Below, piece after piece: positions 7,177-63,407 of a stretch of 64,000 bases of DNA. The notes beneath the pieces are model-generated. The model saw only the letters and a list, made by a program, of their open reading frames with translations. It searched no databases and was not told where the DNA came from. The stretch lies in the IMG/VR virus record IMGVR_UViG_3300027808_000017, positions 1 through 64,000 of that record; one strand, given 5' to 3'. Within the stretch, counting starts at the first letter, position 1, and each line of letters begins with the position of its first letter. Origin of the DNA: a virus. Its lineage: Duplodnaviria > Heunggongvirae > Uroviricota > Caudoviricetes. A program made the position numbers and the translations under genes.

Positions 7177-7206
7177 ACTTGTATTGATTGATTAAAGGAG
7201 CTAGTT

Positions 7207-7443: not shown

Positions 7444-7468
7444 CAATAAATGGATTAGGGTATATAAT
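7440..7468 (+). promoter_or_regulatory. sigma70-type early promoter (family member)
   Basis: TTGACA (overlaps stop of upstream gene)-17-TATAAT; UTR AGACTCTTAGACAGTAAAGAAAAGGAAACGAA. Confidence 0.65.
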
Positions 7469-7500
7469 AGACTCTTAGACAGTAAAGAAAAGGAAACGAA

Positions 7501-7878: not shown

Positions 7879-7880
7879 GG

Positions 7881-7909
7881 TTGACAATAAATAGATTTGG
7901 GTATATAAT
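7881..7909 (+). promoter_or_regulatory. sigma70-type early promoter (family member)
   Basis: TTGACA-17(ATAAATAGATTTGGGTA)-TATAAT. Confidence 0.65.
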
Positions 7910-7938
7910 ACTTGTATTGATTGATTAAAGGAGTTGAA

Positions 7939-8211
7939 ATGTCTGCACTAGTTGAATACACATTGGAACTGTACAAATCTGACAAACGTGTTACGGGCGG
8001 TAAGCGTCTTGTCACTAAAGAAGAATTTGCCCCTGTCACTAGAGCCTACATCAAGGCTGTGATTGAGTCAAAAACTAAGTTGGGTTTCATTGTTGAACCC
8101 CATGAGACTTATGTTACCAAACGCAACATGATGACCGGTAAAACATATCAGGAACGTTATGATACACCGTATTTCTGTTCACCCTCTAGCGAATCTTTTT
8201 GGAGCAATTAA
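7939..8211 (+). CDS. hypothetical early protein
   Basis: ATG 7939 after AAAGGAG; track ORF began at upstream TTG. Confidence 0.5.
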   Translation: MSALVEYTLELYKSDKRVTGGKRLVTKEEFAPVTRAYIKAVIESKTKLGFIVEPHETYVTKRNMMTGKTYQERYDTPYFCSPSSESFWSN

Positions 8212-18048: not shown

Positions 18049-18059
18049 TAAGTAATAAT

Positions 18060-19283
18060 ATGACCGAAGAATCTAAAATAAATTATTGTCACTTTTGTGG
18101 GAACAGCAAAGAAATTGTAAAAAAACTTGTTGTTAGTGAGAAGGTTGCTATATGCAATGAGTGCGTGGAACTATGTCAGAATCTAATCAATGATGAAGTA
18201 GAGCCAGAAAATCCGATTGAACCTAATCGTGATCCGGAGGCCATCAAAGAATATCTTGATATGCACGTTGTTGGTCAAGAAGATGCTAAGATAGTTTTGA
18301 GCGTTGCTGTTGCCAATCATTATAAGCGCATCAACAATCCACCAAAAGATATTGAAATACAAAAAGGTAATGTGTTGATTGTCGGGCCTACAGGAAGTGG
18401 TAAAACATTGCTTGCTAAGACAGCCGCAAAATATCTTAAAGTGCCCTTCATTGTTGCTGATGCTACGAGTTTGACAGAAGCCGGGTATGTTGGAGATGAT
18501 GTTGAATCAATGATTAGTATGTTGATTCATGCCGCAGGTGGTGATGTAAAATTAGCCGAGCGTGGTATTATATTTGTTGATGAAATTGACAAGATTGCAC
18601 GTAAAGGTGAAAGTGCAAGTATCACCCGTGACGTATCAGGTGAAGGTGTTCAACAAGCATTGCTCAAAATGGTAGAAGGTAGTACCGTTCGTATTCCCAA
18701 AGAGGGTGGTCGTAAACATCCTGGTGGCGATATGAGTGAAATCAATACCAAAGATATATTGTTTATTGCCGGTGGCGCATTTGTTGGTCTTAAAGACATT
18801 ATTGCTAATCGTATGAATGGTACAAGTATTGGATTTAATGCTACTATCACTGACAGCAAAGTTGAAGGTGATTTGACAAAAGTCAGTCCTGATGACTTAA
18901 CCAAATATGGAATGATTCCTGAGTTCATTGGACGTTTTACTACTACAGTAAGTATCCAAGAATTGTCTAAGAAACAATTGGTTCATATTTTGACAGATGT
19001 AAAGAACAATTATATCAGTCAATACAAGTATTTGCTAAGTTTGGATAATATCAATTTATCTTTTACTAAAGAAGCCCTTGAACAAATTGCTGAGAATACA
19101 CTAACATTAAAGACCGGAGCACGTGGTTTACATACTGAGATTGAACGTGTTTTAATGTGTCATATGTTCTATACCAAGCAATACAAAGAAAATAATATAA
19201 CTATGCTAAATATAGATGTGGGTCAAATTTTAAATCCCACACCAATATATGACGAAAAAAGGAAGACAGGTACTAGTAACTGA
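18060..19283 (+). CDS. clpX: ATP-dependent Clp protease ATP-binding subunit ClpX
   Basis: N-terminal C4 zinc finger CHFCG...CNEC; Walker A GPTGSGKTLLAKT; ClpX-like length; start set at MTEESKINYCHFCG (track ORF starts further upstream). Confidence 0.85.
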   Translation: MTEESKINYCHFCGNSKEIVKKLVVSEKVAICNECVELCQNLINDEVEPENPIEPNRDPEAIKEYLDMHVVGQEDAKIVLSVAVANHYKRINNPPKDIEIQKGNVLIVGPTGSGKTLLAKTAAKYLKVPFIVADATSLTEAGYVGDDVESMISMLIHAAGGDVKLAERGIIFVDEIDKIARKGESASITRDVSGEGVQQALLKMVEGSTVRIPKEGGRKHPGGDMSEINTKDILFIAGGAFVGLKDIIANRMNGTSIGFNATITDSKVEGDLTKVSPDDLTKYGMIPEFIGRFTTTVSIQELSKKQLVHILTDVKNNYISQYKYLLSLDNINLSFTKEALEQIAENTLTLKTGARGLHTEIERVLMCHMFYTKQYKENNITMLNIDVGQILNPTPIYDEKRKTGTSN

Positions 19284-19470
19284 TGGTAATGTTGAAAAAG
19301 CATTACGTAAGTTTAAGAAAAAAATTGCAGAGCAAGGTCTACTGCAAGAAGTCCGCGACCGTCAAGAGTTCGTTAAACCCACAGTCAAACGCAAAATTGC
19401 CAAGAGCAAAGCAAAGAGTAGATGGAAGAAACATCTACGAGACCAAGAATTACCCAAAAAACTATATTAA
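19249..19470 (+). CDS. rpsU: 30S ribosomal protein S21
   Basis: VLVTDGNVEKALRKFKKKIAEQGLLQEVRDRQEFVKPTVKRK aligns with bacterial S21 ([43 protein letters not shown]); overlaps clpX 3' end. Confidence 0.75.
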   Translation: MTKKGRQVLVTDGNVEKALRKFKKKIAEQGLLQEVRDRQEFVKPTVKRKIAKSKAKSRWKKHLRDQELPKKLY

Positions 19471-19573
19471 CCTAAATAGTTGTATATATTGCACAATCAT
19501 GTAAAATATATACTGTAGTAGATGCCTAACGGGTCTATTACAACACAATCTTGCTTTAACAAAGGAGAAAATT

Positions 19574-21490
19574 ATGAGCAAAGTAATCGGTATCGACCTA
19601 GGTACCACAAATTCATGTGTAGCCGTCATTGAAAACGGAATCCCCAAAGTAATTGAAAACAGCGAAGGTGCTAGAACTACACCCTCAATCGTTGCCTATG
19701 CCAACGATGAGATTCTTGTAGGTGCTAGTGCTAAACGTCAAGCAGTTACTAATCCAAAAAATACAATCTACGCCGCAAAGCGACTGATTGGTCGTAAATT
19801 CAAAGAAGAGGCTGTACAAAAAGATATTAACTTGATGCCGTATACCATCGTTGAAAATGACAATGGTGATGCATGGGTTCAGTTAAACGATAATAAGTTA
19901 GCACCCCCGCAGATTTCAGCGGAAGTCTTACGCAAGATGAAAAAGACTGCGGAAGATTATCTAGGTCATGAAGTTACACAAGCAGTTATTACTGTTCCCG
20001 CTTATTTTAATGATAGTCAAAGACAAGCGACAAAAGATGCAGGTAAAATTGCAGGCTTGGAAGTATTGCGTATCATTAACGAACCCACAGCAGCCGCATT
20101 AGCGTATGGTGTAGATAAACAGGAAAAGCGTGACCGTAAAGTTGCTGTATATGACTTAGGTGGTGGTACCTTTGACGTATCAATCATTGAGATTGCCAAC
20201 GTTGATGGTGACACACAAGTTGAAGTATTGTCAACAAATGGCGATACATTCTTGGGTGGTGAAGACTTTGACCAACGCATCATGGACTACTTGATTAGTG
20301 AATTCAAAAAGGATTCAGGAGTCGATTTAAGTAAAGACATGCTAGCACTGCAACGACTAAAAGAAGCCGCAGAAAAGGCTAAGATTGAGTTGTCAAGTAC
20401 AGCACAAACAGATGTTAACTTACCATATGTAACAGCAGATGCTAGCGGTCCTAAGCACATGAACATTAAGTTGTCACGTAGCAAATTGGAACAGTTAGTT
20501 GATGAATTGATTCAACGCAGTATTCAACCATGTAAGACAGCTATGGCTGATGCTAAGATTTCAATAAGTGATATTGACGAGGTTATTCTTGTTGGTGGTA
20601 TGACACGTATGCCTAAAGTACAAGAAATGGTTGAATCATTTTTTGGTAAAGCACCTCGCAAGGACGTTAACCCGGATGAGGCAGTTGCCGCTGGTGCCGC
20701 TATTCAGGGTGATGTATTAGGTGGTGGACGCACAGATGTTTTATTGCTTGATGTTACTCCATTGAGTCTTGGCATTGAAACAATGGGTGGTGTGATGAGT
20801 AAGTTGATTCAAAAGAATACAACTATTCCTACTAAACAAAGTCAAACATTCAGTACAGCAGAAAACAATCAACAAGCGGTTACTATTAAAGTATTCCAAG
20901 GTGAACGTGAAATTGCACAATACAACAAGTTGCTAGGTGATTTTAACTTAGATGGAATTCCACCAGCACCAAAAGGTATGCCTCAAATCGAAGTTACATT
21001 TGATATTGATGCTAACGGCATTATGCACATCGGTGCAAAGGACAAAGGTACTGGTAAGGAAAACAAAATCACTATTAAATCAAACAGTGGTTTGAGTGAA
21101 TCAGAGATTCAAGAAATGGTTAAAGATGCTGAATTGAATGCTGAATCTGACAAGAAAGCCCGTGAATTAATTGAGGCACGTAATGGTGCAGAATCAACAT
21201 TGTATGGATTCAAACAAGACTTTAATAAGTACAGTGACAAAGTTACTGAAGAAGAAAAAACTAAAGCCGAAGAAGCAATCAAAGCAGTTGAAGAAGCAAT
21301 CAACGGGGATGACCCAACCGTTATCCAAGATAGTATTCCTAAATTATATGAGGCAATTGGTCCAATCACTAAAGCTAAAAGTGATGAAGAAGCCAAGAAA
21401 AAGGCTGAAGAGGCAACTAAGACTACAGAAGCACCAAAAGATGACAATGTAGTTGATGCAGAAGTTAAAGAGTCACCGGAGACTGTTTAA
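19574..21490 (+). CDS. dnaK: chaperone DnaK (Hsp70)
   Basis: [18 protein letters not shown]..., full-length Hsp70 (638 aa); RBS AAAGGAG. Confidence 0.9.
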
Positions 21491-27531: not shown

Positions 27532-27559
27532 AGTACATATTTAGTTAACAAAAATATGG

Positions 27560-27588
27560 TTGACAATAAATCACTTTGGGTATACAAT
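27560..27588 (+). promoter_or_regulatory. sigma70-type early promoter (family member)
   Basis: TTGACA-17(ATAAATCACTTTGGGTA)-TACAAT. Confidence 0.6.
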
Positions 27589-27617
27589 AGAGGCTTCTGT
27601 AGAGAAAAGGAGTTTTT

Positions 27618-27818
27618 ATGTCTTACGTTGTTTTCAAGCATAACAAAGAATACGGTCCTCGACAAGGTCTCGAGGGTCCGTTTCACTATCCCAATGGTCG
27701 TGTTCTGTATTACGATCCTAAAGCAGGTGAGTACTACGATCCTCGTACCGACTTTTACGTTGACCGTGACGAGGTCTCAGACCTGCAAAATTCTATCTTT
27801 GACATCCTGAAAGGTTAA
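27618..27818 (+). CDS. hypothetical early protein
   Basis: 66 aa; RBS AAAGGAG. Confidence 0.5.
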   Translation: MSYVVFKHNKEYGPRQGLEGPFHYPNGRVLYYDPKAGEYYDPRTDFYVDRDEVSDLQNSIFDILKG

Positions 27819-28038: not shown

Positions 28039-28044
28039 AAACGG

Positions 28045-28073
28045 TTGACAATAAATGGCTTTGGGTATATAAT
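28045..28073 (+). promoter_or_regulatory. sigma70-type early promoter (family member)
   Basis: TTGACA-17(ATAAATGGCTTTGGGTA)-TATAAT; UTR AGAATCTTAAACAGTAAAGAAAAGGA. Confidence 0.65.
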
Positions 28074-28106
28074 AGAATCTTAAACAGTAAAGAAAAGGAC
28101 TTGCAA

Positions 28107-28379
28107 ATGCGTACACCAACTATAATTTATGGTTTGAAAAATTCTCAGAAAATTCGCATCATTTTCAAAGGTGATGGTTCTGAGAATGAAATTGGATTGT
28201 ACATGACAGTACAACAATCGGTGACAATGTTTGCTACCGCTCTCTCACGTAGCCTAGCTTGGGATGCATTATTGCAATTGTCATCTATACGTCAGGAAGC
28301 ACAAAAATATAACGAACCGATTCCAACAGGGATCGGCACTACAATTCGTGGCAAGCAAATTCAAGTTGATTTGGTCTGA
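28107..28379 (+). CDS. hypothetical early protein
   Basis: ATG 28107 (MRTPTIIYGL) after UTR/RBS; track ORF extends upstream through promoter. Confidence 0.5.
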   Translation: MRTPTIIYGLKNSQKIRIIFKGDGSENEIGLYMTVQQSVTMFATALSRSLAWDALLQLSSIRQEAQKYNEPIPTGIGTTIRGKQIQVDLV

Positions 28380-28557: not shown

Positions 28558-28562
28558 AAAGG

Positions 28563-28591
28563 TTGACGATAAATCGTTTTGGGTATATAAT
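28563..28591 (+). promoter_or_regulatory. sigma70-type early promoter (family member)
   Basis: TTGACG-17(ATAAATCGTTTTGGGTA)-TATAAT. Confidence 0.6.
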
Positions 28592-28625
28592 AGAATCTTA
28601 AACAGTAAACAACAGGAGTTAGCAA

Positions 28626-29093
28626 ATGGGTACACGTTCACTTATCGCAGTTGTTCATGGTGATAACTACAAAACAGTTTATTGTCATTGGGATGGCTAT
28701 CTGTCACACAATGGTCGTATTTTGCAAAAACACTATGATTCACCTAAAGCAAACAATCTTGTTGCAATGGGCAATATCTCTAGTCTCAAAGCTAACATTG
28801 GTAGAAAACACCCCTTCAGTGCGTTTGACATTCCCGGCATGTCTCCAAGTGCATGGGAAAATAAGTATGGCAACATGACTACATTCTATGGTCGTGACCG
28901 CGGAGACGAAGGTCAAGAGTTTGTCACACATACCAGCAAAGAATCACTAATTGAATCATTCAATGAGTCTTGGTGCGAGTTTGCATATATTATGAAAGAT
29001 GACATTTGGTATGTTATGTTTCAAGGTGATGAGAATTTTTATTTGTTGTCAGAAGAATTGGTTAAACAAAAAGATACAGTAGAGGCAGTATAA
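28626..29093 (+). CDS. hypothetical protein
   Basis: 155 aa. Confidence 0.5.
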   Translation: MGTRSLIAVVHGDNYKTVYCHWDGYLSHNGRILQKHYDSPKANNLVAMGNISSLKANIGRKHPFSAFDIPGMSPSAWENKYGNMTTFYGRDRGDEGQEFVTHTSKESLIESFNESWCEFAYIMKDDIWYVMFQGDENFYLLSEELVKQKDTVEAV

Positions 29094-45574: not shown

Positions 45575-46126
45575 ATGTACGATATTGTAGAGAAAATCAG
45601 TGAATCCAGAACAAAAAAATTAGAGATAGTCAAGCTATCCTATGACCTTTCCGACCTCAATCCAGTATTAAGCAAAAAGACAATGGATTATCACTATGGG
45701 GATTTAGCCCATGGATATGCATCCCGATACAACAAGGGTGAGGGTGACAAAGATTTCAATTATGCGGGTGCTTTCCTGCACAACATTTATTTTCCGCAGT
45801 TTCGCAAAATACAAGAAGATAACACTCCTAACGGTCCTGTACTAGGAATCATTAAGCGTAAGTACGATTGGTGGAGAGATTTTAAAGAACAATTCAAACA
45901 AGAAGCCATGAAGATACAGGGTAGTGGTTGGATTTATATGAGTTATACAGGTGAGATAAAGACTATTGTTAACCACGAGGTTCGTGAAGATATTCTTATT
46001 CTAGTTGACTGGTGGGAACATGCTTGGGCCTTAGACTATCAAGCAGATAAAAAAGGTTACTTAGAAAACATTTGGAAGATAATGAACTGGAGTCACATCA
46101 ATACCCGCTGGGGGAAGAATTTATGA
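45575..46126 (+). CDS. Fe/Mn superoxide dismutase homolog
   Basis: SKKTMDYHYGDLAHGY ~ QTMEIHHTKHHQTY; GSGWIYM ~ GSGWAWL; DWWEHAWALDYQ...IWKIMNW ~ DVWEHAYYLKFQ...FWNVVNW. Confidence 0.6.
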   Translation: MYDIVEKISESRTKKLEIVKLSYDLSDLNPVLSKKTMDYHYGDLAHGYASRYNKGEGDKDFNYAGAFLHNIYFPQFRKIQEDNTPNGPVLGIIKRKYDWWRDFKEQFKQEAMKIQGSGWIYMSYTGEIKTIVNHEVREDILILVDWWEHAWALDYQADKKGYLENIWKIMNWSHINTRWGKNL

Positions 46127-48663
46127 GAGCCACTGAATTTATAACTGAATCTAAAACTGTAGAGTACGAAGGCTTAACACTAAAAATAAGTAAACAAGGT
46201 CATGAGTTAATAGTCAATGCCCTTGATGATTGGGGTAATAAAGTATTAGGCCATGTAAGATTCAACATAGGTGATGGTAAAGAATTAGACCCACAAGACC
46301 TTAAAGTTGATGATAAGTATCAAGGTCAAGGCATCGCTAAAGTCATGTATGATTATGTTAAAAGTCTTGGCTATACGATTGCTAGAAGTTATGACCAAAC
46401 TGATGCCGGTGCAGGCTTTTGGAACAAGCATCGCGGAGAAGATGTTCGTATTTGGGAAGCCCGAGCCGGTGGAAAACTGAATAGAAAATACGATTCGGCC
46501 CGTCGAGAAGTTAAAAGCATTTTGAACAGCCCATACATAAACTTAAAAGAGTGGGGTCTGAGCATGACTATGTTGCCCAAACTAGGTATTAATCCTGGCA
46601 AGGGCATCAGCGAGGATACTCCCAAGGGCATTTACTTTTATCCATTAGCGTATGTCAATGATTGGGTCAATGGTTCTGAGGAGTTACCATGGGGTAATGA
46701 TTTCCCATACATACAAGTGTTTCAATACGATACTAGTCATCGAATGACACCGGACACAAAAGTTGATCCTGAGAGATTAAAGGCAACACTGCGTCAATAT
46801 TGTCCTGAAGAAGTTATCAATCAATTAATAGAAGAAGGCACATACAACAATGATCCTTATTGGTTTATTTATAATTGCCTAATTCAAGTAAGCAAGAATG
46901 ATGAATCTACTATTATTCGTTGGAATAAAATATTAAGAGACTTGGGCTTTACTAGTGTTTATGACTATGGCAAGGGCTGGATAGCACACAACGAACCAGA
47001 GCAAGGTATTATCTTAGATCCAAGAATCATCAAGCAGGTTCAAACTTTTAACAACTACACACGTAAGCAAGGTGTAGCGGAGGGCAAGGTCAAACTCTAC
47101 ACAGATCCTGGCTATTTTGGGGCAGAAGTAGATGACACAGGGTTTGATGGCCTACCAGTAGTCAACATACCCACTAATCAACTTGTGGGATTTGAACCAG
47201 ATTCAAAGATGAATCAACCAAAAAGCCGAGCCAATGTTGAAAAAATAGTAGCAGGATTGAAACAAGGTGACAAGTTGCCACCATTGTTGGTTCGCAAATA
47301 TAAAAATGGATATCAAGTATTAGATGGTCATCATAGATTCTGGGCCTATAAATTGTCGGGTACAAAATCTATTCCATCACGAATTGTACCTGATAAAGAT
47401 ATAGAAGAAATCAGTAAACAAGGTGTGGTAGAAAGTGTCAATGACTATCTATGGCACGGGTCTAGGTATAGAAATGAGGTACTAGTACCGCGTCAGGCTA
47501 ATGATACCGGTGGTAAAGAAGAAAGTAATAAAAATGCTATATATGCTACTCCTAGTGCAAAAGTTGCTATAGCAATGGGGCTAACTACTCCTGGATCAGA
47601 TACCGGAATGTTTCCAAACGATCCACAAATGGTACTATTCAAAGGCGGTATTAGAAAAGGTGAAATGGTTTACTTGCACAAGGTACCTAAAGATTTATTC
47701 ATAAAACACAACAGCAGAGAATGGTATAGTAAACCCGATGTAAAAGAAATTACACCTATAGAAGTAGTAACAGTTCCTGTAGACAAATGGTTAAGTTTGA
47801 TTAGAACTGCTACCCCTAAAGATTTAGAATTACAGAAAAAAAACATGAAGAAGCAAGGTGTGGCGGAAGGCTTAGATGATAATAGAGTTAGTTTCAAGGT
47901 ACAAAAAGGTAAAAACAAATTTGCAACTACTTTAAGTGTTGGTGGCGACCCAGTAGGAGTATACCAATATGATGCTGATACAGGTCGTAGCATAGCCGAG
48001 ATTTATCCAGAATTCAAAGGCAAAGGATTAGGTAAATTATTGGTTTTACATGCTATCTATACCGCGGCTAATTTGGGATTAGATTTCCAAGAAGATGAAT
48101 CAAGAACCTCAGAGTATGATAATGTATTAGATAGTTTGAGTAGTAACGGTTATATTGTAGATGACGATGGATATTGGTATGTAACCGGTCAAGGTGAACA
48201 ATATCTACAACAATCATTAAAACAAGGTGTGGCGGAAGGTGATGACAAATTAAAAGATCCAATAGCAAATGCAATATTAGATTTCTATCAACATGCCGGA
48301 CATATTAGCAAAGACCCAATTGATAACTATGTTGGTACTGCAAAAGAATTGCTAAGTCAGGTCAGTGATCCTACAGTCAAATCAAAGATACTAGATATTT
48401 TCAAACAAGCAAAACAAAGCCCATATGTTCAAGGTGGAGTTGTTACAACTATTGGTGCATTACTTGCCGGTGGAGTATTAAGTTCAGCACAGAAAATGGG
48501 ATTGAGTCCAGCGCAAACTAACTTAGTGTTACAAGCGATACTAAATACAGTTATACCTACTGTGGTGTCCAGGATCAATGGAAAGAGTTGGAGTGACACA
48601 GTTAAGTACACACTAGCAAGTGCAGGCATTGGTACTGGCATTGCTGGTATGATGGAGGAATAA
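46123..48663 (+). CDS. large multidomain protein: GNAT-like / ParB-like nuclease domain / second GNAT-like, with KQGVAEG linker repeats and hydrophobic C-terminus
   Basis: GNAT motif A-like YQGQGIAKVMYDYV and KGKGLGKLLVLHAIY; ParB/Srx motif GYQVLDGHHRFWAYKL; start at MRATEFITES (GGGGGAAG RBS). Confidence 0.5.
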   Translation: MRATEFITESKTVEYEGLTLKISKQGHELIVNALDDWGNKVLGHVRFNIGDGKELDPQDLKVDDKYQGQGIAKVMYDYVKSLGYTIARSYDQTDAGAGFWNKHRGEDVRIWEARAGGKLNRKYDSARREVKSILNSPYINLKEWGLSMTMLPKLGINPGKGISEDTPKGIYFYPLAYVNDWVNGSEELPWGNDFPYIQVFQYDTSHRMTPDTKVDPERLKATLRQYCPEEVINQLIEEGTYNNDPYWFIYNCLIQVSKNDESTIIRWNKILRDLGFTSVYDYGKGWIAHNEPEQGIILDPRIIKQVQTFNNYTRKQGVAEGKVKLYTDPGYFGAEVDDTGFDGLPVVNIPTNQLVGFEPDSKMNQPKSRANVEKIVAGLKQGDKLPPLLVRKYKNGYQVLDGHHRFWAYKLSGTKSIPSRIVPDKDIEEISKQGVVESVNDYLWHGSRYRNEVLVPRQANDTGGKEESNKNAIYATPSAKVAIAMGLTTPGSDTGMFPNDPQMVLFKGGIRKGEMVYLHKVPKDLFIKHNSREWYSKPDVKEITPIEVVTVPVDKWLSLIRTATPKDLELQKKNMKKQGVAEGLDDNRVSFKVQKGKNKFATTLSVGGDPVGVYQYDADTGRSIAEIYPEFKGKGLGKLLVLHAIYTAANLGLDFQEDESRTSEYDNVLDSLSSNGYIVDDDGYWYVTGQGEQYLQQSLKQGVAEGDDKLKDPIANAILDFYQHAGHISKDPIDNYVGTAKELLSQVSDPTVKSKILDIFKQAKQSPYVQGGVVTTIGALLAGGVLSSAQKMGLSPAQTNLVLQAILNTVIPTVVSRINGKSWSDTVKYTLASAGIGTGIAGMMEE
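47065..48240 (+). repeat. three copies of a ~20-nt intragenic direct repeat encoding KQGVAEG
   Basis: AAGCAAGGTGTAGCGGAGGGC at 47065-47085, AAGCAAGGTGTGGCGGAAGG at 47851-47870, AACAAGGTGTGGCGGAAGGT at 48221-48240. Confidence 0.7.
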
Positions 48664-48986
48664 TGGCATATTCAGAAAAAGTAATTGACCAAATAGTAAA
48701 AGAACACAATGTTGTGTTGTTTATGAAGGGGACCGCACAATTTCCCATGTGTGGATTTTCGGGCAAAGCTATACAACTGCTGAATGAATGCGATTCAGAC
48801 TTTGATGTATTCACTGTAAATGTGCTTGATGATAATGACATTCGACAAAGTATCAAAGAATACAGTAATTGGCCGACCATTCCTCAATTGTATGTCAATG
48901 GTGAGTTCATCGGCGGATCTGACATCTTGATCGAAATGCACGAATCAGGTGAATTACAACAATTATTAAAAAACAAGGAGTCATAA
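48663..48986 (+). CDS. monothiol glutaredoxin (Grx4/GrxD type)
   Basis: FMKGTAQFPMCGFSGKA: CGFS active site; 107 aa. Confidence 0.8.
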   Translation: MAYSEKVIDQIVKEHNVVLFMKGTAQFPMCGFSGKAIQLLNECDSDFDVFTVNVLDDNDIRQSIKEYSNWPTIPQLYVNGEFIGGSDILIEMHESGELQQLLKNKES

Positions 48987-48989
48987 TTT

Positions 48990-49018
48990 ATGGCATATTC
49001 AGAAAAAGTAATTGACCA
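48990..49018 (+). repeat. 29-bp exact direct repeat of the first 29 nt of the grx CDS (copy at 48663-48691)
   Basis: ATGGCATATTCAGAAAAAGTAATTGACCA present at both positions; second copy opens a 16-codon remnant ORF. Confidence 0.85.
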
Positions 49019-49078
49019 CTACGCAGTTATGATAGAATAATAATGCACACAACCGGGTGCACCTAGATAAATACTTGT

Positions 49079-49675
49079 ATGAAAAACAAATATGGTCTAA
49101 GTAAGGTGTGCTTTTTTTGTGAATCTAGTTTTATAACTAAACCTAGATTTATAGATTACTGTTCACAAAAATGTAAAAATCCTCTTAACAGGGGAGAATA
49201 TGATCCCTGGAATAAAGGTATCAAACTTACAGATGAACAAAAAGCAAAACAAAATACAGACGGGCTCAAAAAAGGATGGGGATGGAACAAGGGCGGAACT
49301 AATGAAGCGGCACGCCAGCGTATGCTAGTCAATAATCCAAATAAAGATGGAAGGTTAAACAATCTTAGACCAAAAAATCCAATTACAGAACCCCTTAAAA
49401 TATATCGTAGTAAGGTTAGGTACCATACATATAGAACTCTTAAAGAAATGAGAGCAAACGGTGAGTGGGTTCCAAAAACTGGTAAGTATAAAGACAGTTG
49501 GCAAATTGACCATATTATTCCACACAAACAAGGTTTTGAATTAAGAATAGATCCTTCAGTACTTGGTGGAAAAAAGAATATACAATTTATTAAAGGCGAA
49601 GAAAACAGAAAAAAATGGGATAGTTATCAACCCATTGAAATAGTAGAGTCTATTACAGGAGGTAATTATGTATAG
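49079..49675 (+). CDS. putative HNH endonuclease
   Basis: N-terminal Cys cluster CFFC...C..C; WQIDHIIPHKQG...N...N consistent with HNH core. Confidence 0.45.
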   Translation: MKNKYGLSKVCFFCESSFITKPRFIDYCSQKCKNPLNRGEYDPWNKGIKLTDEQKAKQNTDGLKKGWGWNKGGTNEAARQRMLVNNPNKDGRLNNLRPKNPITEPLKIYRSKVRYHTYRTLKEMRANGEWVPKTGKYKDSWQIDHIIPHKQGFELRIDPSVLGGKKNIQFIKGEENRKKWDSYQPIEIVESITGGNYV

Positions 49676-50051
49676 TGCAAAAGTGTTAGATCATTATGAG
49701 AACCCTAGGAACGCAGGAAGTTTTTCCAAAGATGAAGAAAATATAGGTACGGGATTAGTAGGAGCCCCGGCGTGTGGTGACCTAATGAAACTACAAATAA
49801 GAGTAGAGAATGGCATTATTACAGATGCACGTTTTAAAACGTATGGATGTGGATCGGCAATTGCAAGTAGTTCTCTAGTCACAGAGTGGGTTAAAGGCAA
49901 GACATTAGACGAGGCAGCAACTATTAAAAATTCAGAAATTGCTGAGGAACTTGCATTACCCCCAGTTAAGATACATTGTAGTATCTTAGCAGAAGATGCT
50001 ATCAAAGCCGCAGTAGAAGATTATAAAAAGAAACATGATATCATTATCTGA
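49668..50051 (+). CDS. iscU: Fe-S cluster assembly scaffold IscU
   Basis: YENPRNAGSF, GAPACGD, YGCGSAIASS, LPPVKIHCS (three conserved Cys + LPPVK). Confidence 0.85.
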   Translation: MYSAKVLDHYENPRNAGSFSKDEENIGTGLVGAPACGDLMKLQIRVENGIITDARFKTYGCGSAIASSSLVTEWVKGKTLDEAATIKNSEIAEELALPPVKIHCSILAEDAIKAAVEDYKKKHDIII

Positions 50052-50358
50052 CAAAGCAAAAACAAAAATAGAAACTCTATTAAAGAGTTCTCAACATGTT
50101 GGGATTCGTATAGGGGTGAAAACAACTGGTTGTAGTGGATTAGCATATGTATTAGAATATGTAAAAGAATATGTTAGTGATCCTACTACTATCAATTACG
50201 CTCAACCTAACTTTTGTGTATTAGTAGATAAAAAGCATAATGTATATTTAGAAGGTCTTACGATGGATTATGTCCGTAATGGACTAAATGAGGGGTTTGA
50301 GTTTAGCAACCCGAATGAACGTGACCGCTGTGGATGCGGAGAAAGTTTTAGAGTATGA
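50035..50358 (+). CDS. A-type Fe-S carrier (IscA/HesB family)
   Basis: GCSGLAY ... CGCGESF C-terminal signature. Confidence 0.7.
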
Positions 50359-50678
50359 TAACAATTACAGAATCAGCAAGTATCAAAATAGCAGATATTA
50401 TTGCGGAAGAAAACAACCCTGACTTAAAGTTACGTATGTTTGTCCAGGGCGGGGGATGCTCAGGATTCAGCTATGGATTTACGTTAGAGGAGATAAAAAA
50501 TGAAGATGACTTTGAATTTGAAGCTGGTGCCACAAGTGTCCTGGTCGATGCAATGTCGGCTCAATATCTTCAAGGGGCTGAGGTTGATTACGTAGAAGAC
50601 TTAATGGGGGCAGAATTCAAGATAAAGAACCCCACAGCTACTAGTACTTGCGGATGCGGGAGTTCCTTTTCGGTTTAA
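50355..50678 (+). CDS. A-type Fe-S carrier (IscA/ErpA family)
   Basis: [21 protein letters not shown] ... CGCGSSFSV. Confidence 0.8.
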
Positions 50679-50702
50679 GATAAATACTAGACAAGGATTA
50701 TC

Positions 50703-52751
50703 ATGGCAATTTTAGGACAAGCAAACATATTAGTAGGAGTAGAAAATCAAGCTACTGGTAGTGATAGCATCTACACCGCATTCAATAAAGTAGTTGACAA
50801 CTTTGACACGTTATTCACCTATTCCAGCCCGTTCAATACATTTAATAGTGGTAACGGGATCACAGCAACCCCATTTAGTAGCAACGGATCAGTATTCTTT
50901 GAAAACACAGGAGTAACTAGTTTAATTGCCGGTACTGGAATCACTATATCATCTCAAACAGGAGAAATTGTTATTTCTTCTGCCGGTGGGGAGGGAATGT
51001 CAGGTGTCACTAGTGTTGGAATATCAAGTATTTCGTTAGATGTAAGTGATTCTCCTATCGTCAGTTCAGGATTAATTAGAGTAGAATTACCTACAATTGA
51101 AACAGGCCTTGGATTTGAACCGGGTGACTATATTACACCCGCACTTACCGTAGATGCATACGGTCGTATTACTAGTATTTCTAATACCTCTACGTCAGGT
51201 ACAGTAACCAGCATAGCACTAGATACAGTTGGTGATGGCATTGGCATAACCGGAGGTCCGATAACAGATAATGGAACGATTGTTATTACTAACACAGGCG
51301 TTACCAGAATAAATGCAGGAAATGGAATTGAATTAAGTGGTAGTACCGGAAACGTGACTATCAATTCTACACTTAGAGGTGTTGGTGTTGTTAGTAGAGT
51401 AGATGTTGATAGTACTACACTGACAGTACTGAACAGTCCAATAACATCATCAGGAACAATTACAGTTGATATTCCAGATGACATCTCGTTAGCTGGAAAT
51501 CTTATTGCAAATACTATCACTAGCAACTCCACAGCAACAATTACAGGTAATATTACTGTGGGTAATATTACCTCTACTGGTACAATTACTTCATTAGGTG
51601 GAAATATTTTATTAGGAGCTAATCTAGTAATTACTACCTTAAGTGGCACGGGCGGACCATCTAATATTCTTACTATTGGGTTTACTACTCAACCAAGAAT
51701 ACCGTTTGTACCAGGTGCTATCATTACCATTACCGGAACAACACCAACTACTTACAATGGATCTTACACAGTAATCACAGGTACTACAAGTGCAGTAACT
51801 GTGACTAGTTCAGTATCAACAGCAGTAGTTACAAAAGGTAGAATCATTGGTGGAGGTGATATAATTAGTAATGGATTTGTTACGGTATCTGCTAACATTA
51901 CTAGTGCAAACGTGATAGCTACTACAGCATTGCAGGCACCCAAAGTTAATATTACAGGTAATGTATCATCCTCTGCATGGGGTACAAGTGGAATAGGTTT
52001 AGTTGTGTCAGCAAATACATATACTGATGCCTCTACTGCAGGTTCAGGCACAGTCGCAAGTGCTTCAATCAACGTGATAAATATACCAACTATTACAGCA
52101 AGTAATCTTGCAGTAACCGTCACTAAAGCATCGTCATTATATATTGCAGGTGCACCTGCTGCCGGTGCTAATATTACATTAACCAATTCATATGCATTGC
52201 AAGTGGCTGCTGGGCCTGTACAGATTGATACATCTACTGCCGCAACATCAGCCACGACCGGCGCACTAAGAGTTGCCGGTGGTGTAGGTATCAGTGGTGC
52301 TTTATATGCAGGAGGCGGAATAGCTAGTGCAAACACTACATCCGGTTCTCTAGTGGTTACCGGTGGACTAGGTGTTAGTGGTGATACATATCACGGTGGT
52401 AGTGTCCTTATTTCAGGAACAGGCGGGCTAGGGTACGGAACTGGATCTGGTGGAACAGTTACGCAAGCTACAAGCCGAACAACCGGTGTAACTATTAATA
52501 AAACAAACGGTGCTATTGTTCTTATTTCCGGAGCAGGTTCTACCGGGTGGCAATCATTCACTGTGACTAATAGTACAGTGGTAGCTACTGATGTAGTTCA
52601 TGTTTCTCAAAAATCAGGTACGGATCTTTATCAAATATTTGTTACTGCTATAGCAGCCGGTAGCTTTCGAATAACATATGCAACTACTGCAGGCTCAACT
52701 ACTGAGCAACCGGTATTTAATTTCGCTGTCGTAAAAGCAGTAACAGCATAA
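50703..52751 (+). CDS. tail-fibre-like structural protein (Thr/Gly/Ser/Ile-rich repeats)
   Basis: 682 aa; repeated NTGVT(S/R)(L/I)xAGxGIxxSxxTGxVxI units. Confidence 0.5.
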   Translation: MAILGQANILVGVENQATGSDSIYTAFNKVVDNFDTLFTYSSPFNTFNSGNGITATPFSSNGSVFFENTGVTSLIAGTGITISSQTGEIVISSAGGEGMSGVTSVGISSISLDVSDSPIVSSGLIRVELPTIETGLGFEPGDYITPALTVDAYGRITSISNTSTSGTVTSIALDTVGDGIGITGGPITDNGTIVITNTGVTRINAGNGIELSGSTGNVTINSTLRGVGVVSRVDVDSTTLTVLNSPITSSGTITVDIPDDISLAGNLIANTITSNSTATITGNITVGNITSTGTITSLGGNILLGANLVITTLSGTGGPSNILTIGFTTQPRIPFVPGAIITITGTTPTTYNGSYTVITGTTSAVTVTSSVSTAVVTKGRIIGGGDIISNGFVTVSANITSANVIATTALQAPKVNITGNVSSSAWGTSGIGLVVSANTYTDASTAGSGTVASASINVINIPTITASNLAVTVTKASSLYIAGAPAAGANITLTNSYALQVAAGPVQIDTSTAATSATTGALRVAGGVGISGALYAGGGIASANTTSGSLVVTGGLGVSGDTYHGGSVLISGTGGLGYGTGSGGTVTQATSRTTGVTINKTNGAIVLISGAGSTGWQSFTVTNSTVVATDVVHVSQKSGTDLYQIFVTAIAAGSFRITYATTAGSTTEQPVFNFAVVKAVTA

Positions 52752-53750: not shown

Positions 53751-54161
53751 TTAACCCACAATGTAGGGCTTGTTCCATTTGCCGATGTGTACTTCAACAT
53801 ACCAACCTACGTTAAAATAGTCGGATTGGATATCGCTCTTGTCCCAATTACCATCGTTCATTGCTTCCATTACTTCGGTCAAGAATGCCTTAGCATCACC
53901 GTCATAGTGTTCATGGAACCAGTAAGGATTGATAGAATCGTAAGCATTTGTGTTAGGCTTGAAACCTTGTGCAACCTGATAAAAATTATTACCGCACACA
54001 CGATTAGAGTTTGCGATAAAGTCAATTTTACCTGACTTTAAGGTCAATGACAATGTAGAATGATGACGGACACTCAGTGAACCCTTGATACCATACTTGT
54101 TAAGAATGGATTTAACTTTAGGGGCGATTTCTGATTTACGTTCCTGAGACATATAAGCCAT
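53751..54161 (-). CDS. hypothetical early protein
   Basis: 136 aa downstream of family promoter. Confidence 0.5.
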   Translation of the reverse strand: MAYMSQERKSEIAPKVKSILNKYGIKGSLSVRHHSTLSLTLKSGKIDFIANSNRVCGNNFYQVAQGFKPNTNAYDSINPYWFHEHYDGDAKAFLTEVMEAMNDGNWDKSDIQSDYFNVGWYVEVHIGKWNKPYIVG

Positions 54162-54194
54162 TTGTTACTCCTTGTTTCGACTGTTTAAGATTCT

Positions 54195-54223
54195 ATTATA
54201 TACCCAAATCCATTTACTGTCAA
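54195..54223 (-). promoter_or_regulatory. sigma70-type early promoter (family member, minus strand)
   Basis: revcomp TTGACAGTAAATGGATTTGGGTA TATAAT + UTR AGAATCTTAAACAG. Confidence 0.65.
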
Positions 54224-54228
54224 CCGTT

Positions 54229-54360
54229 TTACTGTTCCATCGGATCATTAAGAATATATTCGGAAATATATTCTACTACAAAAGTTTTACCTTTGTGCAA
54301 TTTGAGATATTCACCTAGGGACTCTGCACTGCGAAAAATATAACTGTTAATGCGAAACAT
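54229..54360 (-). CDS. small early protein (43 aa, not in ORF track)
   Basis: MFRINSYIFRSAESLGEYLKLHKGKTFVVEYISEYILNDPMEQ after UTR ...TTGATTGATTAAAGGAGTGTAT. Confidence 0.4.
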   Translation of the reverse strand: MFRINSYIFRSAESLGEYLKLHKGKTFVVEYISEYILNDPMEQ

Positions 54361-54380
54361 ATACACTCCTTTAATCAATC

Positions 54381-54409
54381 AATAAAAGTATTATATACCC
54401 GAATCCATT
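54381..54409 (-). promoter_or_regulatory. sigma70-type early promoter (family member, minus strand)
   Basis: revcomp TTGACA-ATAAATGGATTCGGGTA-TATAAT. Confidence 0.65.
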
Positions 54410-54573
54410 TATTGTCAAATTTTGGCTAATTTCTTTTTAGTGTGTCAGAGTTCTAGGCCTATATCAGAATCGGTCCTAGAGCACCTGACACACAAATGAA
54501 TACTCAAGTATTCATTTTTATTAAGAAGTTATATATAAAAAAACCCTACAAGGTTAATACTTTACTTTTAGTT

Positions 54574-56353: not shown

Positions 56354-56626
56354 TTACTCCGAAAATTCGTACATGTATTGAGCAACGCTAGGATCCAACT
56401 TGATGAGGTCTTTAGCGGCACCAGTCAATGCACGATAACGGGCTTGCACTTGACTACGGGGCAGTTCGCCGTCACAGGAAAGATTCTCAGGGCTCAGTGC
56501 GGCATCAATACTTTGTGCAACACGTTTGCGACCCTCAGCCGTTTTAACTTCGTAGACCACAACGTTACCACTGAACAATGAATTCCAGCTGTTTTGCTGG
56601 GAGATGTATGCGTTAAGTGCTTTCAT
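56354..56626 (-). CDS. hypothetical early protein
   Basis: 90 aa. Confidence 0.5.
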   Translation of the reverse strand: MKALNAYISQQNSWNSLFSGNVVVYEVKTAEGRKRVAQSIDAALSPENLSCDGELPRSQVQARYRALTGAAKDLIKLDPSVAQYMYEFSE

Positions 56627-56659
56627 TTTTGATTCCTTTAATCAACTGTTTAAGATTAT

Positions 56660-56688
56660 ATTATATACCCGAATTGATTTATTGTCAA
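56660..56688 (-). promoter_or_regulatory. sigma70-type early promoter (family member, minus strand)
   Basis: revcomp TTGACAATAAATCAATTCGGGTA TATAAT. Confidence 0.65.
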
Positions 56689-56951
56689 GCCTGGTATGTA
56701 AAATAACTACGGATTTTGCTTTGGCGATTGGTGTGACTTTCGTTGAATTTTACTTCATAGCCTCGCTCACGGAGAGCAGTCATCAACACTGACAAGTCAC
56801 AGTCCTCTTCCAGGAATGCATTCTCACCCTTTTGATAACTGTATGTAGAGATTTTGTCGGCGATACCAAGTGACACCAACTTGGACTTTGCAATACGTGC
56901 CCAAGCATGACCAGGATCTGCAAAAACTTTGATGGAGATTTTTTTAGTCAT
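56685..56951 (-). CDS. hypothetical protein
   Basis: 88 aa; 3' end overlaps -35 of downstream promoter. Confidence 0.45.
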   Translation of the reverse strand: MTKKISIKVFADPGHAWARIAKSKLVSLGIADKISTYSYQKGENAFLEEDCDLSVLMTALRERGYEVKFNESHTNRQSKIRSYFTYQA

Positions 56952-56960: not shown

Positions 56961-57203
56961 TTAGATGTAAAAACATTCACCACGCTTGTCGGCACCGATA
57001 GCATCATAGACACATTCACGAACCATAGTGTCCATTGCCTCACCGAACATGTCAGGATTAGAATCGGCCAAGTCACGCAATGCCTTGAAAGTCTGTTTCC
57101 ATGACAGATTTTGACTTTTGGCAGTTGTCACAATACCGTGAACAGCCATGTTACCTTCATCAGAGTACATAGCATAAGTGATATCAAGTGTGATTTTAGT
57201 CAT
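56961..57203 (-). CDS. hypothetical early protein
   Basis: 80 aa. Confidence 0.5.
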   Translation of the reverse strand: MTKITLDITYAMYSDEGNMAVHGIVTTAKSQNLSWKQTFKALRDLADSNPDMFGEAMDTMVRECVYDAIGADKRGECFYI

Positions 57204-57235
57204 TTCGTTTCCTTTTCTTTACTGTCTAAGATTCT

Positions 57236-57264
57236 ATTATATACCCAAAGCCATTTATTGTCAA
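57236..57264 (-). promoter_or_regulatory. sigma70-type early promoter (family member, minus strand)
   Basis: promoter+UTR (to ATG 57203) nearly identical over ~60 nt to the + strand copy at 7440-7503. Confidence 0.7.
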
Positions 57265-57281
57265 CTTTGGGTATGTTGTTT

Positions 57282-57584
57282 TTAAGCAACTTCCAACATG
57301 CTAGCTGGGACTCTCCAGGTCGTGCCAATCAAGCTACTTGACTTTTGCTCACTCACCAGGATGTACTTTTGATTTACTTTTTTCACAGTACCGGTCACAA
57401 TCATACCATTGCGACTATTTTTGAATTTGACAACAGTACCAACGTTCATGGCACGTTTGTTCTGCTTTGCAATGCTAGCACGGGCAAACTTGATGGCATC
57501 ACCAATGCTATTCAGTTCATCATTGGTAAAGTTACCGAACATGATAGCAGAATTAACTTGCTGAATTGCTGAGAATTTTTCCAT
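57282..57584 (-). CDS. hypothetical early protein
   Basis: start at MEKFSAIQQ after AAAGGAAAGACAA; track start is a TTG upstream. Confidence 0.5.
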   Translation of the reverse strand: MEKFSAIQQVNSAIMFGNFTNDELNSIGDAIKFARASIAKQNKRAMNVGTVVKFKNSRNGMIVTGTVKKVNQKYILVSEQKSSSLIGTTWRVPASMLEVA

Positions 57585-57763: not shown

Positions 57764-57789
57764 ATCGATTCCTTACTGTTGATACAAGT

Positions 57790-57818
57790 ATTATATACCC
57801 GAAATGATTTACTGTCAA
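57790..57818 (-). promoter_or_regulatory. sigma70-type early promoter (family member, minus strand)
   Basis: revcomp TTGACAGTAAATCATTTCGGGTA TATAAT. Confidence 0.65.
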
Positions 57819-62699: not shown

Positions 62700-62927
62700 T
62701 TACTTTACAAACCCAGCAAACATTTCAATGTCATACCAAGCTACTGCTTTAGTATTCATTTCATAAACAAGCACAGGGAATGCTTGAGTATTAACTTTAT
62801 CAAAGTTAACAAGTTTCTCAAAATTAGATTGACACAGTTCTTCATCAGACTGGTCCTCAAAAGTCACAAATGCTTTGTTAGTGTTCACAAACTCATCAAT
62901 GTTGTAAGACATAATAGGCCCTTTCAA
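62700..62927 (-). CDS. hypothetical early protein
   Basis: 75 aa; RBS AAAGGG. Confidence 0.5.
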   Translation of the reverse strand: MKGPIMSYNIDEFVNTNKAFVTFEDQSDEELCQSNFEKLVNFDKVNTQAFPVLVYEMNTKAVAWYDIEMFAGFVK

Positions 62928-62942
62928 ATGTTTAAGATGCTA

Positions 62943-62971
62943 TTGTATACCCAATTTGATTTATTGTCAAC
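62943..62971 (-). promoter_or_regulatory. sigma70-type early promoter (family member, minus strand)
   Basis: revcomp TTGACAATAAATCAAATTGGGTA TACAAT. Confidence 0.6.
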
Positions 62972-63407
62972 TTGTTGTTGTAAGGATATCCAAAGCCTGT
63001 TGTAATACTTTTGACTGACGATGTTGTACATCCAACTCCCATGGTAGGTTGGTGTATTCTTCATGTGTCATTTCTTCAGGTGGTTTATTTGTATAGGGTA
63101 TGCCATGCCAATAACACATGCCATTAGGTTTAATCTTAAGCATACCTAAATACTTTTGACTAACATGTATCAGTTCATGTACAAGAATTTTTAGTTGTGA
63201 TTCTAGTGATAGGTTGATGTTCAATCCAATACGATTGACTCGGTTGATATCAATACCACCATAGACATTCTCCTCTAAGGGGCACAAGCATACCTCTACA
63301 GTGTCCGGCAACTCTATGATTTGAGATACTGCAATGGCTAACGAGGTCAATAAAGCCTCGTTATCTTTTTCATAGTTATTATTTTTATAGTAAAACTTAA
63401 CTTCCAT
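62967..63407 (-). CDS. HExxH-motif protein (putative zinc metallopeptidase-like)
   Basis: LVHELIHVSQKY; 146 aa. Confidence 0.4.
   Translation of the reverse strand: MEVKFYYKNNNYEKDNEALLTSLAIAVSQIIELPDTVEVCLCPLEENVYGGIDINRVNRIGLNINLSLESQLKILVHELIHVSQKYLGMLKIKPNGMCYWHGIPYTNKPPEEMTHEEYTNLPWELDVQHRQSKVLQQALDILTTTS

Follow-up and report, generated by a model that had tools for sequence, protein, structure and literature searches.

The stretch of DNA analysed here, called the window throughout, is 64,000 nucleotides (nt) long and comprises positions 1 to 64,000 of the IMG/VR virus record IMGVR_UViG_3300027808_000017, a member of the Caudoviricetes. On its + strand lies a module for the assembly of iron-sulphur (Fe-S) clusters, in which a glutaredoxin gene (grx) is followed by an open reading frame (ORF) for a protein of 198 amino acids (aa), by the scaffold gene iscU and by genes for two A-type carriers, and in which a 29-bp direct repeat brackets grx. 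We argue that the 198-aa ORF is likely to belong to a free-standing, probably HNH-type, homing-endonuclease cassette, which was acquired by one-sided illegitimate break repair, and that both copies of the repeat were derived from iscU. The features on which the argument depends are listed below; contigs and loci compared with the window are given as L numbers.

46072-48663, + strand: 863-aa ORF with GNAT and ParB-N domains, whose stop codon overlaps the ATG of grx (ATAATG)
48643-48665, + strand: repeat A, the last 20 nt of the 863-aa ORF plus ATG (GCTGGTATGATGGAGGAATAATG)
48663-48691, + strand: first copy of the 29-mer, the iscU-derived start of grx (codons MAYSEKV plus ATTGACCA)
48663-48986, + strand: grx, for a monothiol glutaredoxin of the Grx4 family with a CGFS site and a chimeric N-terminus
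48990-49023, + strand: orphan 5' stub (34 nt) of the resident iscU, which includes the second copy of the 29-mer (48990-49018)
48990-49040, + strand: 16-codon remnant ORF (MAYSEKVIDHYAVMIE, then stop)
49024-49045, + strand: repeat A', a decayed 3' end of the 863-aa ORF plus ATG, apparently carried with the cassette (CAGTTATGATAGAATAATAATG)
49046-49078, + strand: conserved leader of the nuclease gene, 33 nt (CACACAACCGGGTGCACCTAGATAAATACTTGT), kept in the distant cassette copies L009, L010, L016 and L148
49079-49675, + strand: free-standing 198-aa ORF, a putative homing endonuclease
49668-49784, + strand: iscU nt 1-117, presumably cassette-derived (co-converted), ending with the diagnostic Leu codon CTA (49782-49784)
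49668-50051, + strand: live iscU, an uninterrupted ORF for 127 aa
50035-50358, + strand: gene of the Fe-S module for an IscA-like A-type carrier
50355-50678, + strand: gene for an ErpA-like A-type carrier, which completes the Fe-S module with the IscA-like gene
After the ErpA-like gene, + strand: gene for a 682-aa protein

The product of the live iscU matches TIGR01999 with 216.9 bits against a cut-off of 192.4, and the motifs GAPACGD, YGCGSA and IHCSIL, with the three Cys which serve as cluster ligands, are all present.

The 29-bp repeat, the iscU stub and the chimeric start of grx

The 29-mer ATGGCATATTCAGAAAAAGTAATTGACCA occurs exactly twice in the window, both times on the + strand (48663-48691 and 48990-49018), with the two copies 327 bp apart and exactly one grx gene between them. 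A search of the window with up to three mismatches found no further match, and none was found in 100 dinucleotide-preserving shuffles, which confirms the exact direct repeat at 48663 and 48990 that a preliminary description of this DNA had reported. That description had also raised the thought that the second repeat might be an assembly artefact. Assemblers can indeed be misled by short exact repeats, and mis-joined reads might then have produced both the second copy and the stub; but identical junction sequences were found in the IMG/VR contig L006/L008 and in the JGI and ENA (megahit) contigs L156-L161, which come from different samples, projects and assemblers, and diverged versions of the same architecture are present in L147-L152. 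At least 24 independent metagenome contigs encode the grx protein, and the arrangement recurs among them. Because the identical junctions come from contigs of different samples and projects, we take the repeat to be real and regard an artefact as extremely improbable.

By their sequence, the two copies of the 29-mer are both the opening codons of iscU. The exact 29-mer was found in 7 viral contigs, and in 6/7 of these it is present as a single copy and opens a full-length iscU (MAYSEKVIDHYENPRNVGSF...). The peptide MAYSEKVIDHY encoded by the remnant is the canonical N-terminus of IscU, and the solved IscU of Escherichia coli reads YSEKVIDHYENPRN from residue 3. The locus L001 is syntenic with the window, is 82-87% identical to it and has neither grx nor the 198-aa ORF. 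When the second copy is judged against such relatives it is 34 nt long (48990-49023) and identical to nt 1-34 of the L001 iscU (ATGGCATATTCAGAAAAAGTAATTGACCACTACG), after which the window diverges; this copy is accordingly an orphan stub from the 5' end of iscU, not a remnant of grx.

The preliminary description had noted that the second copy opens a remnant of 16 codons, and had suggested a tandem duplication of grx, the second copy of which was later overwritten by the HNH gene. The ORF at 48990-49040 is indeed present, but it is a remnant of iscU and not of grx. A duplication would be in keeping with the spacing of the two 29-mers, which bracket exactly one grx, and with a short dead ORF after the second of them. 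Against it, the shared sequence is that of the iscU start: after nt 29 the second copy continues with CTACG, as iscU does, whereas grx continues with AATAG, and a self-repeat search of the window found no grx homology downstream of the second copy. Moreover, the nuclease-free sisters L081, L151 and L153 have an intact iscU at that very place, 3 nt after the grx stop codon, and a loop-out of the duplication would keep the native 5' end, and hence would yield no gene that exists in the chimeric form only. We consider the tandem duplication very unlikely. In the comparison with nuclease-free relatives, which had been proposed as a check, L001, L081, L151 and L153 all lack the 198-aa ORF and all have an intact iscU.

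All nuclease-bearing loci of the grx clade have TTT directly after the grx stop codon and next to it the 34-nt stub, whose end is a constant junction (...[CT][AG]CG/CAG...). The allele of the stub tracks the local type of iscU, with the peptide MAYSEKVIDHY in the window and L147, MAYSEKLIDHC in L148-L150 and MAYSPQLIDHY in L152, the last of which is that of the L081 iscU. The remnant ORF runs in frame from iscU codons 1-11 into the last codons of the 863-aa ORF (AVMIE and stop in the window, AGMMEE and stop in L148). In other lineages with the cassette the stub is absent or of another length (MAYSDK, MSYSAKVTNK, MAYSEKVITAGAPRN), and the differing lengths of the stubs across several lineages point to repeated insertion.

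Two further observations concern the same short region. The first 29-33 nt of iscU in L002-L005 and L007 are 100% identical to window 48990-49021, with the rest of iscU at ~74-76% identity; translation-initiation constraints, or frequent recombination at the 5' end of iscU, could account for this unusual conservation at synonymous sites. Across the junction of stub and A' lies a sigma70-like site (49012-49041, + strand; TTGACC, 18 nt, AATAAT; 10/12), ~40 nt upstream of the nuclease ORF, which could be the promoter that drives the nuclease gene; 10 promoter-like sites were found in the region against a shuffled expectation of 7.1, which is not above expectation.

The first copy was correctly placed by the preliminary description at the start of grx (48663-48986), a Grx4-type gene whose product matches PF00462 (3e-19) and TIGR00365 (148 bits against a cut-off of 117.1) and has the CGFS active site within ...FPMCGFSG.... 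The closest bacterial Grx4 proteins are those of Burkholderiales, with the N-terminus MSDVQQR-IDQIVK, and other phage glutaredoxins start with ME-IDQLVK or ...TELIIDQIIK. A start of the form MAYS[EQKD]K[VI]-IDQIVK was seen only in the clade of proteins P0001-P0021, which are 93-100% identical to the grx protein of the window. As the native Grx4 starts with MSDVQQR-IDQIVK, only codons 1-7 of grx are foreign. The joint between the two genes is ATT GAC CA (ATTGACCA), read as I-D-Q in grx and I-D-H in iscU, and is thus a microhomology common to both. In a second clade of phage grx (P0023, L142) we noticed an independent chimera, MAYSPQL-IDQIIK, beside an iscU which starts with MAYSPQLIDHY; the N-terminus of iscU was therefore transplanted to grx at least twice.

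The chimeric start is older than this phage. The usual context of the chimeric grx is a 117-aa ORF, a sigma70-like promoter and then grx itself, and the 29-mers in that context differ from that of the window at 1-3 sites, always including nt 6, which is C or T there and A in the window; L001-type iscU and the stub likewise have A at nt 6. When the start of grx is compared with that of the neighbouring iscU or stub, 29/29 positions agree in the window, 28/29 in L148 and L151 and 21-24/29 in L081, L142, L144, L152 and L153. Three histories fit the exact identity in the window: the incoming chimeric grx start may have crossed over with the resident iscU start, a short tract may have been converted, or the ancestral sequence may have been retained. 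The identity could also be kept by ongoing short-patch gene conversion between the start of grx and that of iscU or the stub, that is, by concerted evolution, and would then be no by-product of one import event or of common descent. Such a process would explain why similarity within a genome is often greater than that between genomes, as in the window, L148 and L151, why the A at nt 6 is absent from all grx alleles in the 117-aa context, and why a matching N-terminus arose independently in the second grx clade. However, the agreement is only 21-24/29 in the five other loci, the window offers one or two informative sites and the flanking homology for conversion is minimal, so that we hold concerted evolution to be possible but somewhat doubtful.

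The 198-aa ORF and the altered site in iscU

The family of the 198-aa ORF comprises 72 viral loci (51-100% identity) and 381 proteins in the protein collection. A scan of 185,579 representative genomes of bacteria and archaea found no member, and there is no nuclease paralogue elsewhere in the window; a blastn search against 50,697 phage records returned distant iscU matches only (67-69% identity) and no close relative. The linkage to iscU is strict. In 68/68 informative loci, namely those where the contig continues past the ORF, iscU starts immediately downstream, within a few bases of the ORF end, and the genes upstream of the family loci are mutually unrelated (NUDIX, SOD-like, a Gly-rich membrane protein, grx and others). 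In the window the 3' end of the ORF supplies the GGAGG ribosome-binding site and overlaps the start of iscU by 8 nt.

Within one and the same 117-aa/grx context the ORF is present in L148-L150 and L152 and absent from L151 and L081, and it is likewise present in the window and absent from the syntenic L001. Decayed copies in L071-L079 have only the last ~30 codons left. In L099 (5150-5330) all that is left of the nuclease ORF is its last 16 nt (ATTACAGGAGGTAATT) in front of iscU, whose first codons are the recoded ones for MYSAKVLDHY; this iscU is recoded over nt 1-35, is L001-like from nt ~36 and carries the presumed nuclease-sensitive site GATGTG, and the locus is an apparent footprint of nuclease loss.

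An Rfam scan of 48400-50200 with E up to 1 found no group I intron or other family and only one chance-level sRNA match; the 198-aa ORF is therefore free-standing. A nuclease borne by an intron or intein in the window was considered and rejected, the ORF being a separate one with no intron or intein found. The 33-nt leader matched no Rfam family, and a hairpin in the leader, which is not conserved in the distant cassette copies, was dropped.

As to the nature of the protein, the label of a putative HNH nuclease given in the preliminary description is plausible, although the Pfam evidence for it is sub-threshold. PF01844 (HNH) scores the window ORF at 16.1 bits (E 0.013), under the cut-off of 21.4, and sub-threshold Pfam HNH matches were obtained in 20/24 family members, with a best E of 7.7e-4 and always on the same D-H...N...N block. 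In an alignment of these 24 diverse members we observed four conserved Cys, which form an N-terminal Cys4 motif, a pair of WNKG motifs and an invariant C-terminal block Q-x-D-H-I-I-P ... N167 ... N176-R-x-K-W, in which D144, H145, N167 and N176 are the same in all 24. These residues correspond to a catalytic His preceded by Asp and to downstream Asn residues of the metal site, and form an H-N-N pattern of the kind that occurs in nicking HNH enzymes. The AlphaFold model shows residues 101-198 with a pLDDT of 85-96 and in a beta-beta-alpha arrangement. No NCBIfam model matched the ORF above threshold, the family profile found nothing relevant among PDB sequences and Foldseek of the model against PDB returned nothing; the PHROG match is PHROG 5104, of unknown function, and the family has no precomputed Pfam domains, with a few members named 'McrA' by JGI. 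HNH membership has weak support, an HNH-like nuclease being probable and not established, and the case for a homing element rests mainly on the genetics of the ORF. A separate observation was made in L069/L070 (4995-5630), where a chimeric ORF positioned 2 nt upstream of iscU encodes a protein whose first ~98 residues (the Cys4 and WNKG region) are of the nuclease family and whose C-terminal half is unrelated, which suggests domain swapping of the catalytic module.

The ORF goes together with changes at one conserved site of iscU. In nuclease-free iscU alleles GTGMVGAPACGDVMKLQ is uninterrupted in 12/12 distinct alleles, whereas alleles linked to the ORF or to ORF remnants are altered within this Cys-Gly-Asp-Val site in 40/40, against 0/12 of the unlinked ones (Fisher p = 5e-12, the alleles not being independent). 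The window subfamily shows a constant change to GAC CTN (Asp-Leu) instead of GAY GTN (Asp-Val), and the window itself has substitutions only (GAC CTA) and no insertion. The DNA at this site reads as follows.

L001-type iscU: …TGTGGTGATGTGATGAAA… / …GCTTGTGGTGATGTGATGAAACTA…
Window-type iscU: …GGTGACCTAATG… / …GCGTGTGGTGACCTAATGAAACTA…

At this site the window iscU also changes its affinity. Against L001 it is 50-73% identical over nt 1-117 and 86-100% identical (30-nt bins) from 49785 on, and with the nuclease-linked L016 it shares 76-86% of positions over nt 1-117 and fewer afterwards. The switch from cassette-like to L001-like sequence falls at 49784/49785, directly after the diagnostic CTA codon, and we propose that this sharp return to the resident sequence at 49785 was caused by co-conversion of the intervening DNA. 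Between the window and L148 identity is ~96% over grx, the ORF and iscU up to nt ~87 and ~70-75% farther on, where L148 nevertheless has the CTG codon.

These observations also bear on a different view, according to which the 198-aa ORF encodes a domesticated zinc-finger protein that binds DNA or RNA and either regulates iscU or accompanies it, and the mosaicism is ordinary module shuffling. Its constant and translationally coupled position next to iscU, its Cys4 motif and two WNKG (NUMOD3-like) motifs, and the combination of a sub-threshold HNH match, an empty Foldseek result and a PHROG of unknown function would all be compatible with such a factor. A regulator would not be expected, however, to be present in one and absent from the other of two near-identical backgrounds, nor to be perfectly linked to non-synonymous or disruptive changes at one conserved iscU site with crossovers exactly there; the decayed copies, the stubs of differing length in several lineages and the invariant D-H...N...N residues likewise argue against it. 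We consider a zinc-finger factor unlikely and retain the homing endonuclease.

Mosaic joints and the proposed route of acquisition

Nested beside the 29-bp repeat is a second, degenerate direct repeat, in which 48643-48665 recurs at 49023-49045 (GCAGTTATGATAGAATAATAATG) with 18/23 positions matching. At the same position L148-L152 carry a near-undiverged CAGGTATGATGGAGGAATAATG, in which the terminus of the window's 863-aa ORF plus ATG is matched at 20/20 positions, and relative to that version the A' of the window (49024-49045) has four further substitutions. Comparisons with L001, L147, L148 and L016 place mosaic boundaries at 48663, ~48762, 49023/24 and 49784/85. Such sharp boundaries bear out the earlier claim of a recombination hotspot inside the Fe-S module, and the second copy is best explained by gene conversion linked to the nuclease, which had been offered beside the tandem duplication. 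Up to grx nt ~98 L147 has the sequence of L081, and over window 48762-51200 it agrees with the window at 100% of positions; on this sequence evidence it is a recombinant of an L081-like and a window-like parent.

The C-terminus of the 863-aa ORF (48600-48663) is hypervariable after a conserved ...ASAGIGTGIAG, as compared in L001, L098-L107 and L123. The extension of this ORF and the gene downstream of it differ from relative to relative (L098/L099, for example, have ~300 extra residues), and in L098 and L100 the big ORF leads straight to iscA, with no iscU. Since the sequence after ...ASAGIGTGIAG differs in every lineage, this is a recombination joint, and it is independent of the nuclease.

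Acquisition of a homing-endonuclease cassette by one-sided break repair, the reading which we favour, could have proceeded as follows. The cassette would consist of a 22-nt fragment of the terminus of an upstream gene, the 33-nt leader, the 198-aa nuclease gene and the recoded iscU nt 1-117. With regard to the activity of the nuclease and its cut site, we infer that it would cut or nick nuclease-free iscU at the Cys-Gly-Asp-Val-Met codons, ~115 nt into the gene, and that the break would be repaired from a cassette-bearing phage during co-infection, whereby the resistant site and everything back to the nuclease gene would be co-converted. The cassette may originally have lain directly behind the terminus of the big ORF and may then have entered the grx-iscU context without upstream homology. 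In a recipient of this kind the left end would be joined illegitimately, and this joint would have preserved 34 nt of the recipient iscU (the stub) together with 22-23 nt of the donor's upstream gene (A'), the composite later spreading by homologous exchange. The first copy would be older: throughout one clade of phage glutaredoxins, iscU codons would have taken the place of grx codons 1-7, with the joint in the 8-nt microhomology ATTGAYCA, and the similarity between the starts of grx and iscU may act as portable homology. The junction of a short big-ORF end with an intact iscU and that of the big-ORF end with the leader had zero matches in viral and metagenome scans, and the junction of the 117-aa-context promoter with an intact iscU had zero matches in the viral scan; because these three predicted ancestral junctions gave no matches, the order of events given here is a proposed one.

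Relatives, comparable systems and significance

Most nuclease-linked iscU alleles outside the window subfamily have a 6-9-nt insertion directly after Cys37-Gly38, of the form Gly codon, stop (TAA, TAG or TGA), 0-3 nt, Gly codon, then GAY GTN ATG. Examples are GGT TAA C GGA (L018-type; L018 ~5700-5720), GGA TGA CY GGA (L026-type, with CT; L026 ~5690-5705), GGT TAG TTA GGT (L052-type; L052 ~5710-5730) and GGT TGA GGA, and insertions are also found in L019-L066, L071-L079, L027, L028 and L033. The offsets cover all three reading frames, and the two halves of iscU are intact ORFs in lineages whose nucleases are 51-79% identical to that of the window. A stop-less variant, GGT TGT T GGA, is present in L062/L063, and in the 8-nt class an ATGA stop/start overlap gives MTGDVMRLQ.... 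A short ribosomal hop, a split two-piece IscU and frameshifting are candidate readings of these insertions.

In L031 (3546-4835) and L032 an intein-like insertion of ~340 aa lies in iscU immediately before Cys63, with the boundaries KTYG/CLTSNAPV...VGSHN/CGSAIASSS and sub-threshold matches to Pfam Hint and PT-HINT; the iscU region of these two loci thus hosts an upstream nuclease gene, a mini-insertion and the intein-like insertion. In L144-L146 (3204-4949) a 581-aa B12-binding radical-SAM gene between iscU and iscA marks another insertion point of the module.

Elsewhere the window has at least 12 copies of a ~60-70-nt promoter cassette, TTGACAATAAAT-N-GGGTATATAAT, with a consensus sigma70 -35, a 17-nt spacer and a -10, followed by a conserved leader and AAGGAG. 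Each copy lies directly upstream of an ORF.

~7145-7215, 7437-7505, 7878-7945, 27556-27620, 28040-28110 and 28560-28630, + strand: promoter cassettes
54156-54231, 54365-54439, 56621-56699, 57198-57284, 57789-57818 and 62922-62973, - strand: promoter cassettes

These cassettes are probably phage promoters for the host RNA polymerase (early promoters). None precedes grx or iscU in the window, and TTGACA...TATAAT precedes the chimeric grx in L081 and L147-L155. At 17985-21490 the window contains genes for a ClpX-like ATPase (17985-19283) and for a full-length DnaK/Hsp70 (19574-21490; PF00012, E 5e-260), and a 5'-3' exonuclease and a DNA ligase are encoded by the phage as well. Since chaperones of the DnaK/HscA type cooperate with IscU in cells, the phage DnaK may be functionally linked to the Fe-S module.

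Free-standing homing endonucleases of phages cleave at a distance from the nuclease gene, have resistant donor alleles and bring about co-conversion of the intervening DNA (PMC2988022). By analogy, the element described here would function in the manner of the free-standing homing-endonuclease cassettes found in T4-like phages. With MobE, MobA and Seg of those phages ('intronless homing', HNH/GIY-YIG) it shares a nuclease gene placed between genes without intron or intein, a presumed target in a conserved neighbouring gene distant from the insertion point, resistant donor alleles, co-conversion of the flanks with sharp mosaic boundaries, and patchy, decaying copies. It differs from them in that the target is the Fe-S scaffold gene iscU, in that the 198-aa family is unannotated and below the Pfam HNH threshold, and in that the cassette brings with it a recoded 5' end of the target, the start of which overlaps the stop of the nuclease gene, so that the start of the target was physically replaced and an orphan stub left. 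One-sided illegitimate break repair at microhomologies has been documented for T4 intron homing (PMC2988022), where, as proposed here, only one flank is homologous, resection is followed by joining at a microhomology on the other flank, and the product keeps parts of both partners (here the 34-nt stub and the 22-nt A'). In our case, however, the repair is deduced from natural genomes and not from crosses, the element is free-standing, and the junction, once formed, was inherited and passed on through homologous exchange, as the recombinant L147 suggests.

For the relatives, though not for the window, two other systems invite comparison. Bonocora and colleagues reportedly described in 2011 the bypass cassette of T4 gene 60 with MobA. 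The gene 60 insert protects against the cassette's own nuclease, MobA (Manning and Atkins 2022, bioRxiv 10.1101/2022.08.31.505936). The insertions in the relatives resemble it as nuclease-linked inserts in a conserved site with a Gly codon, a stop and a second Gly codon. However, they are 6-9 nt long and not 50, and hence have no room for the gene 60 stem-loop or an internal Shine-Dalgarno sequence, and their take-off and landing Gly codons are often non-identical; the iscU of the window, an uninterrupted ORF of 127 codons, has no bypass insertion with matched take-off and landing codons. The nrdA of phage Aeh1, split by MobE ('genes in pieces'), is comparable in that the target is divided into two translated pieces which reassemble. 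In the relatives, by contrast, the nuclease gene does not lie between the pieces, and the split would fall inside the Cys37-Asp39 cluster-ligand loop of a 127-aa protein.

Auxiliary genes for Fe-S assembly encoded by phages have been reported (Nishimura et al. 2017, PMC5332604), and the grx-iscU-iscA/erpA module carried by a large phage is of that kind, but that paper makes no mention of mobile nucleases, stubs or chimeric gene starts in such modules. In a literature search for iscU as a homing-endonuclease target in phage we found no report, the terms co-occurring in passing only. The protein family, the target (iscU in a phage Fe-S module) and the replacement of the target's 5' end by the cassette are new. 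More tentatively, and with a good deal less confidence than for the cassette itself, the ORF may represent an undescribed, phage-restricted family of iscU-specific homing endonucleases, in which self-immunity would be conferred either by one Val-to-Leu coding change in the cluster-ligand loop (GAC CTA in the window) or, in many of the relatives, by the 6-9-nt Gly-stop-Gly insertion, decoded by a very short ribosomal hop or giving a two-piece IscU.

Two corrections to annotation follow, in that the remnant is iscU and not grx and the N-terminus of the glutaredoxin is a transplanted one, so that the locus is an annotation trap. The nuclease family, with its 381 members, is covered by no Pfam or NCBIfam model, and since its predicted target, the Cys-Gly-Asp-Val-Met codons of IscU, is narrow and conserved, it is a candidate for a nuclease of new specificity. 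The Gly-stop-Gly mini-insertions of the relatives offer a directly testable case of short translational hopping or of a functional split Fe-S scaffold, tied to nuclease immunity; if they are decoded by a hop, they would be a second, independent and miniature natural counterpart of the nuclease-plus-bypass cassette of T4 gene 60 and MobA. At the level of the phage, the locus would provide a clean natural example of a selfish nuclease remodelling an auxiliary metabolic operon in a large freshwater-type phage, in which the nuclease gives its target gene a new start, leaves scars that can be dated (the stub and the fragment of the donor's upstream gene) and drags grx between phage lineages.

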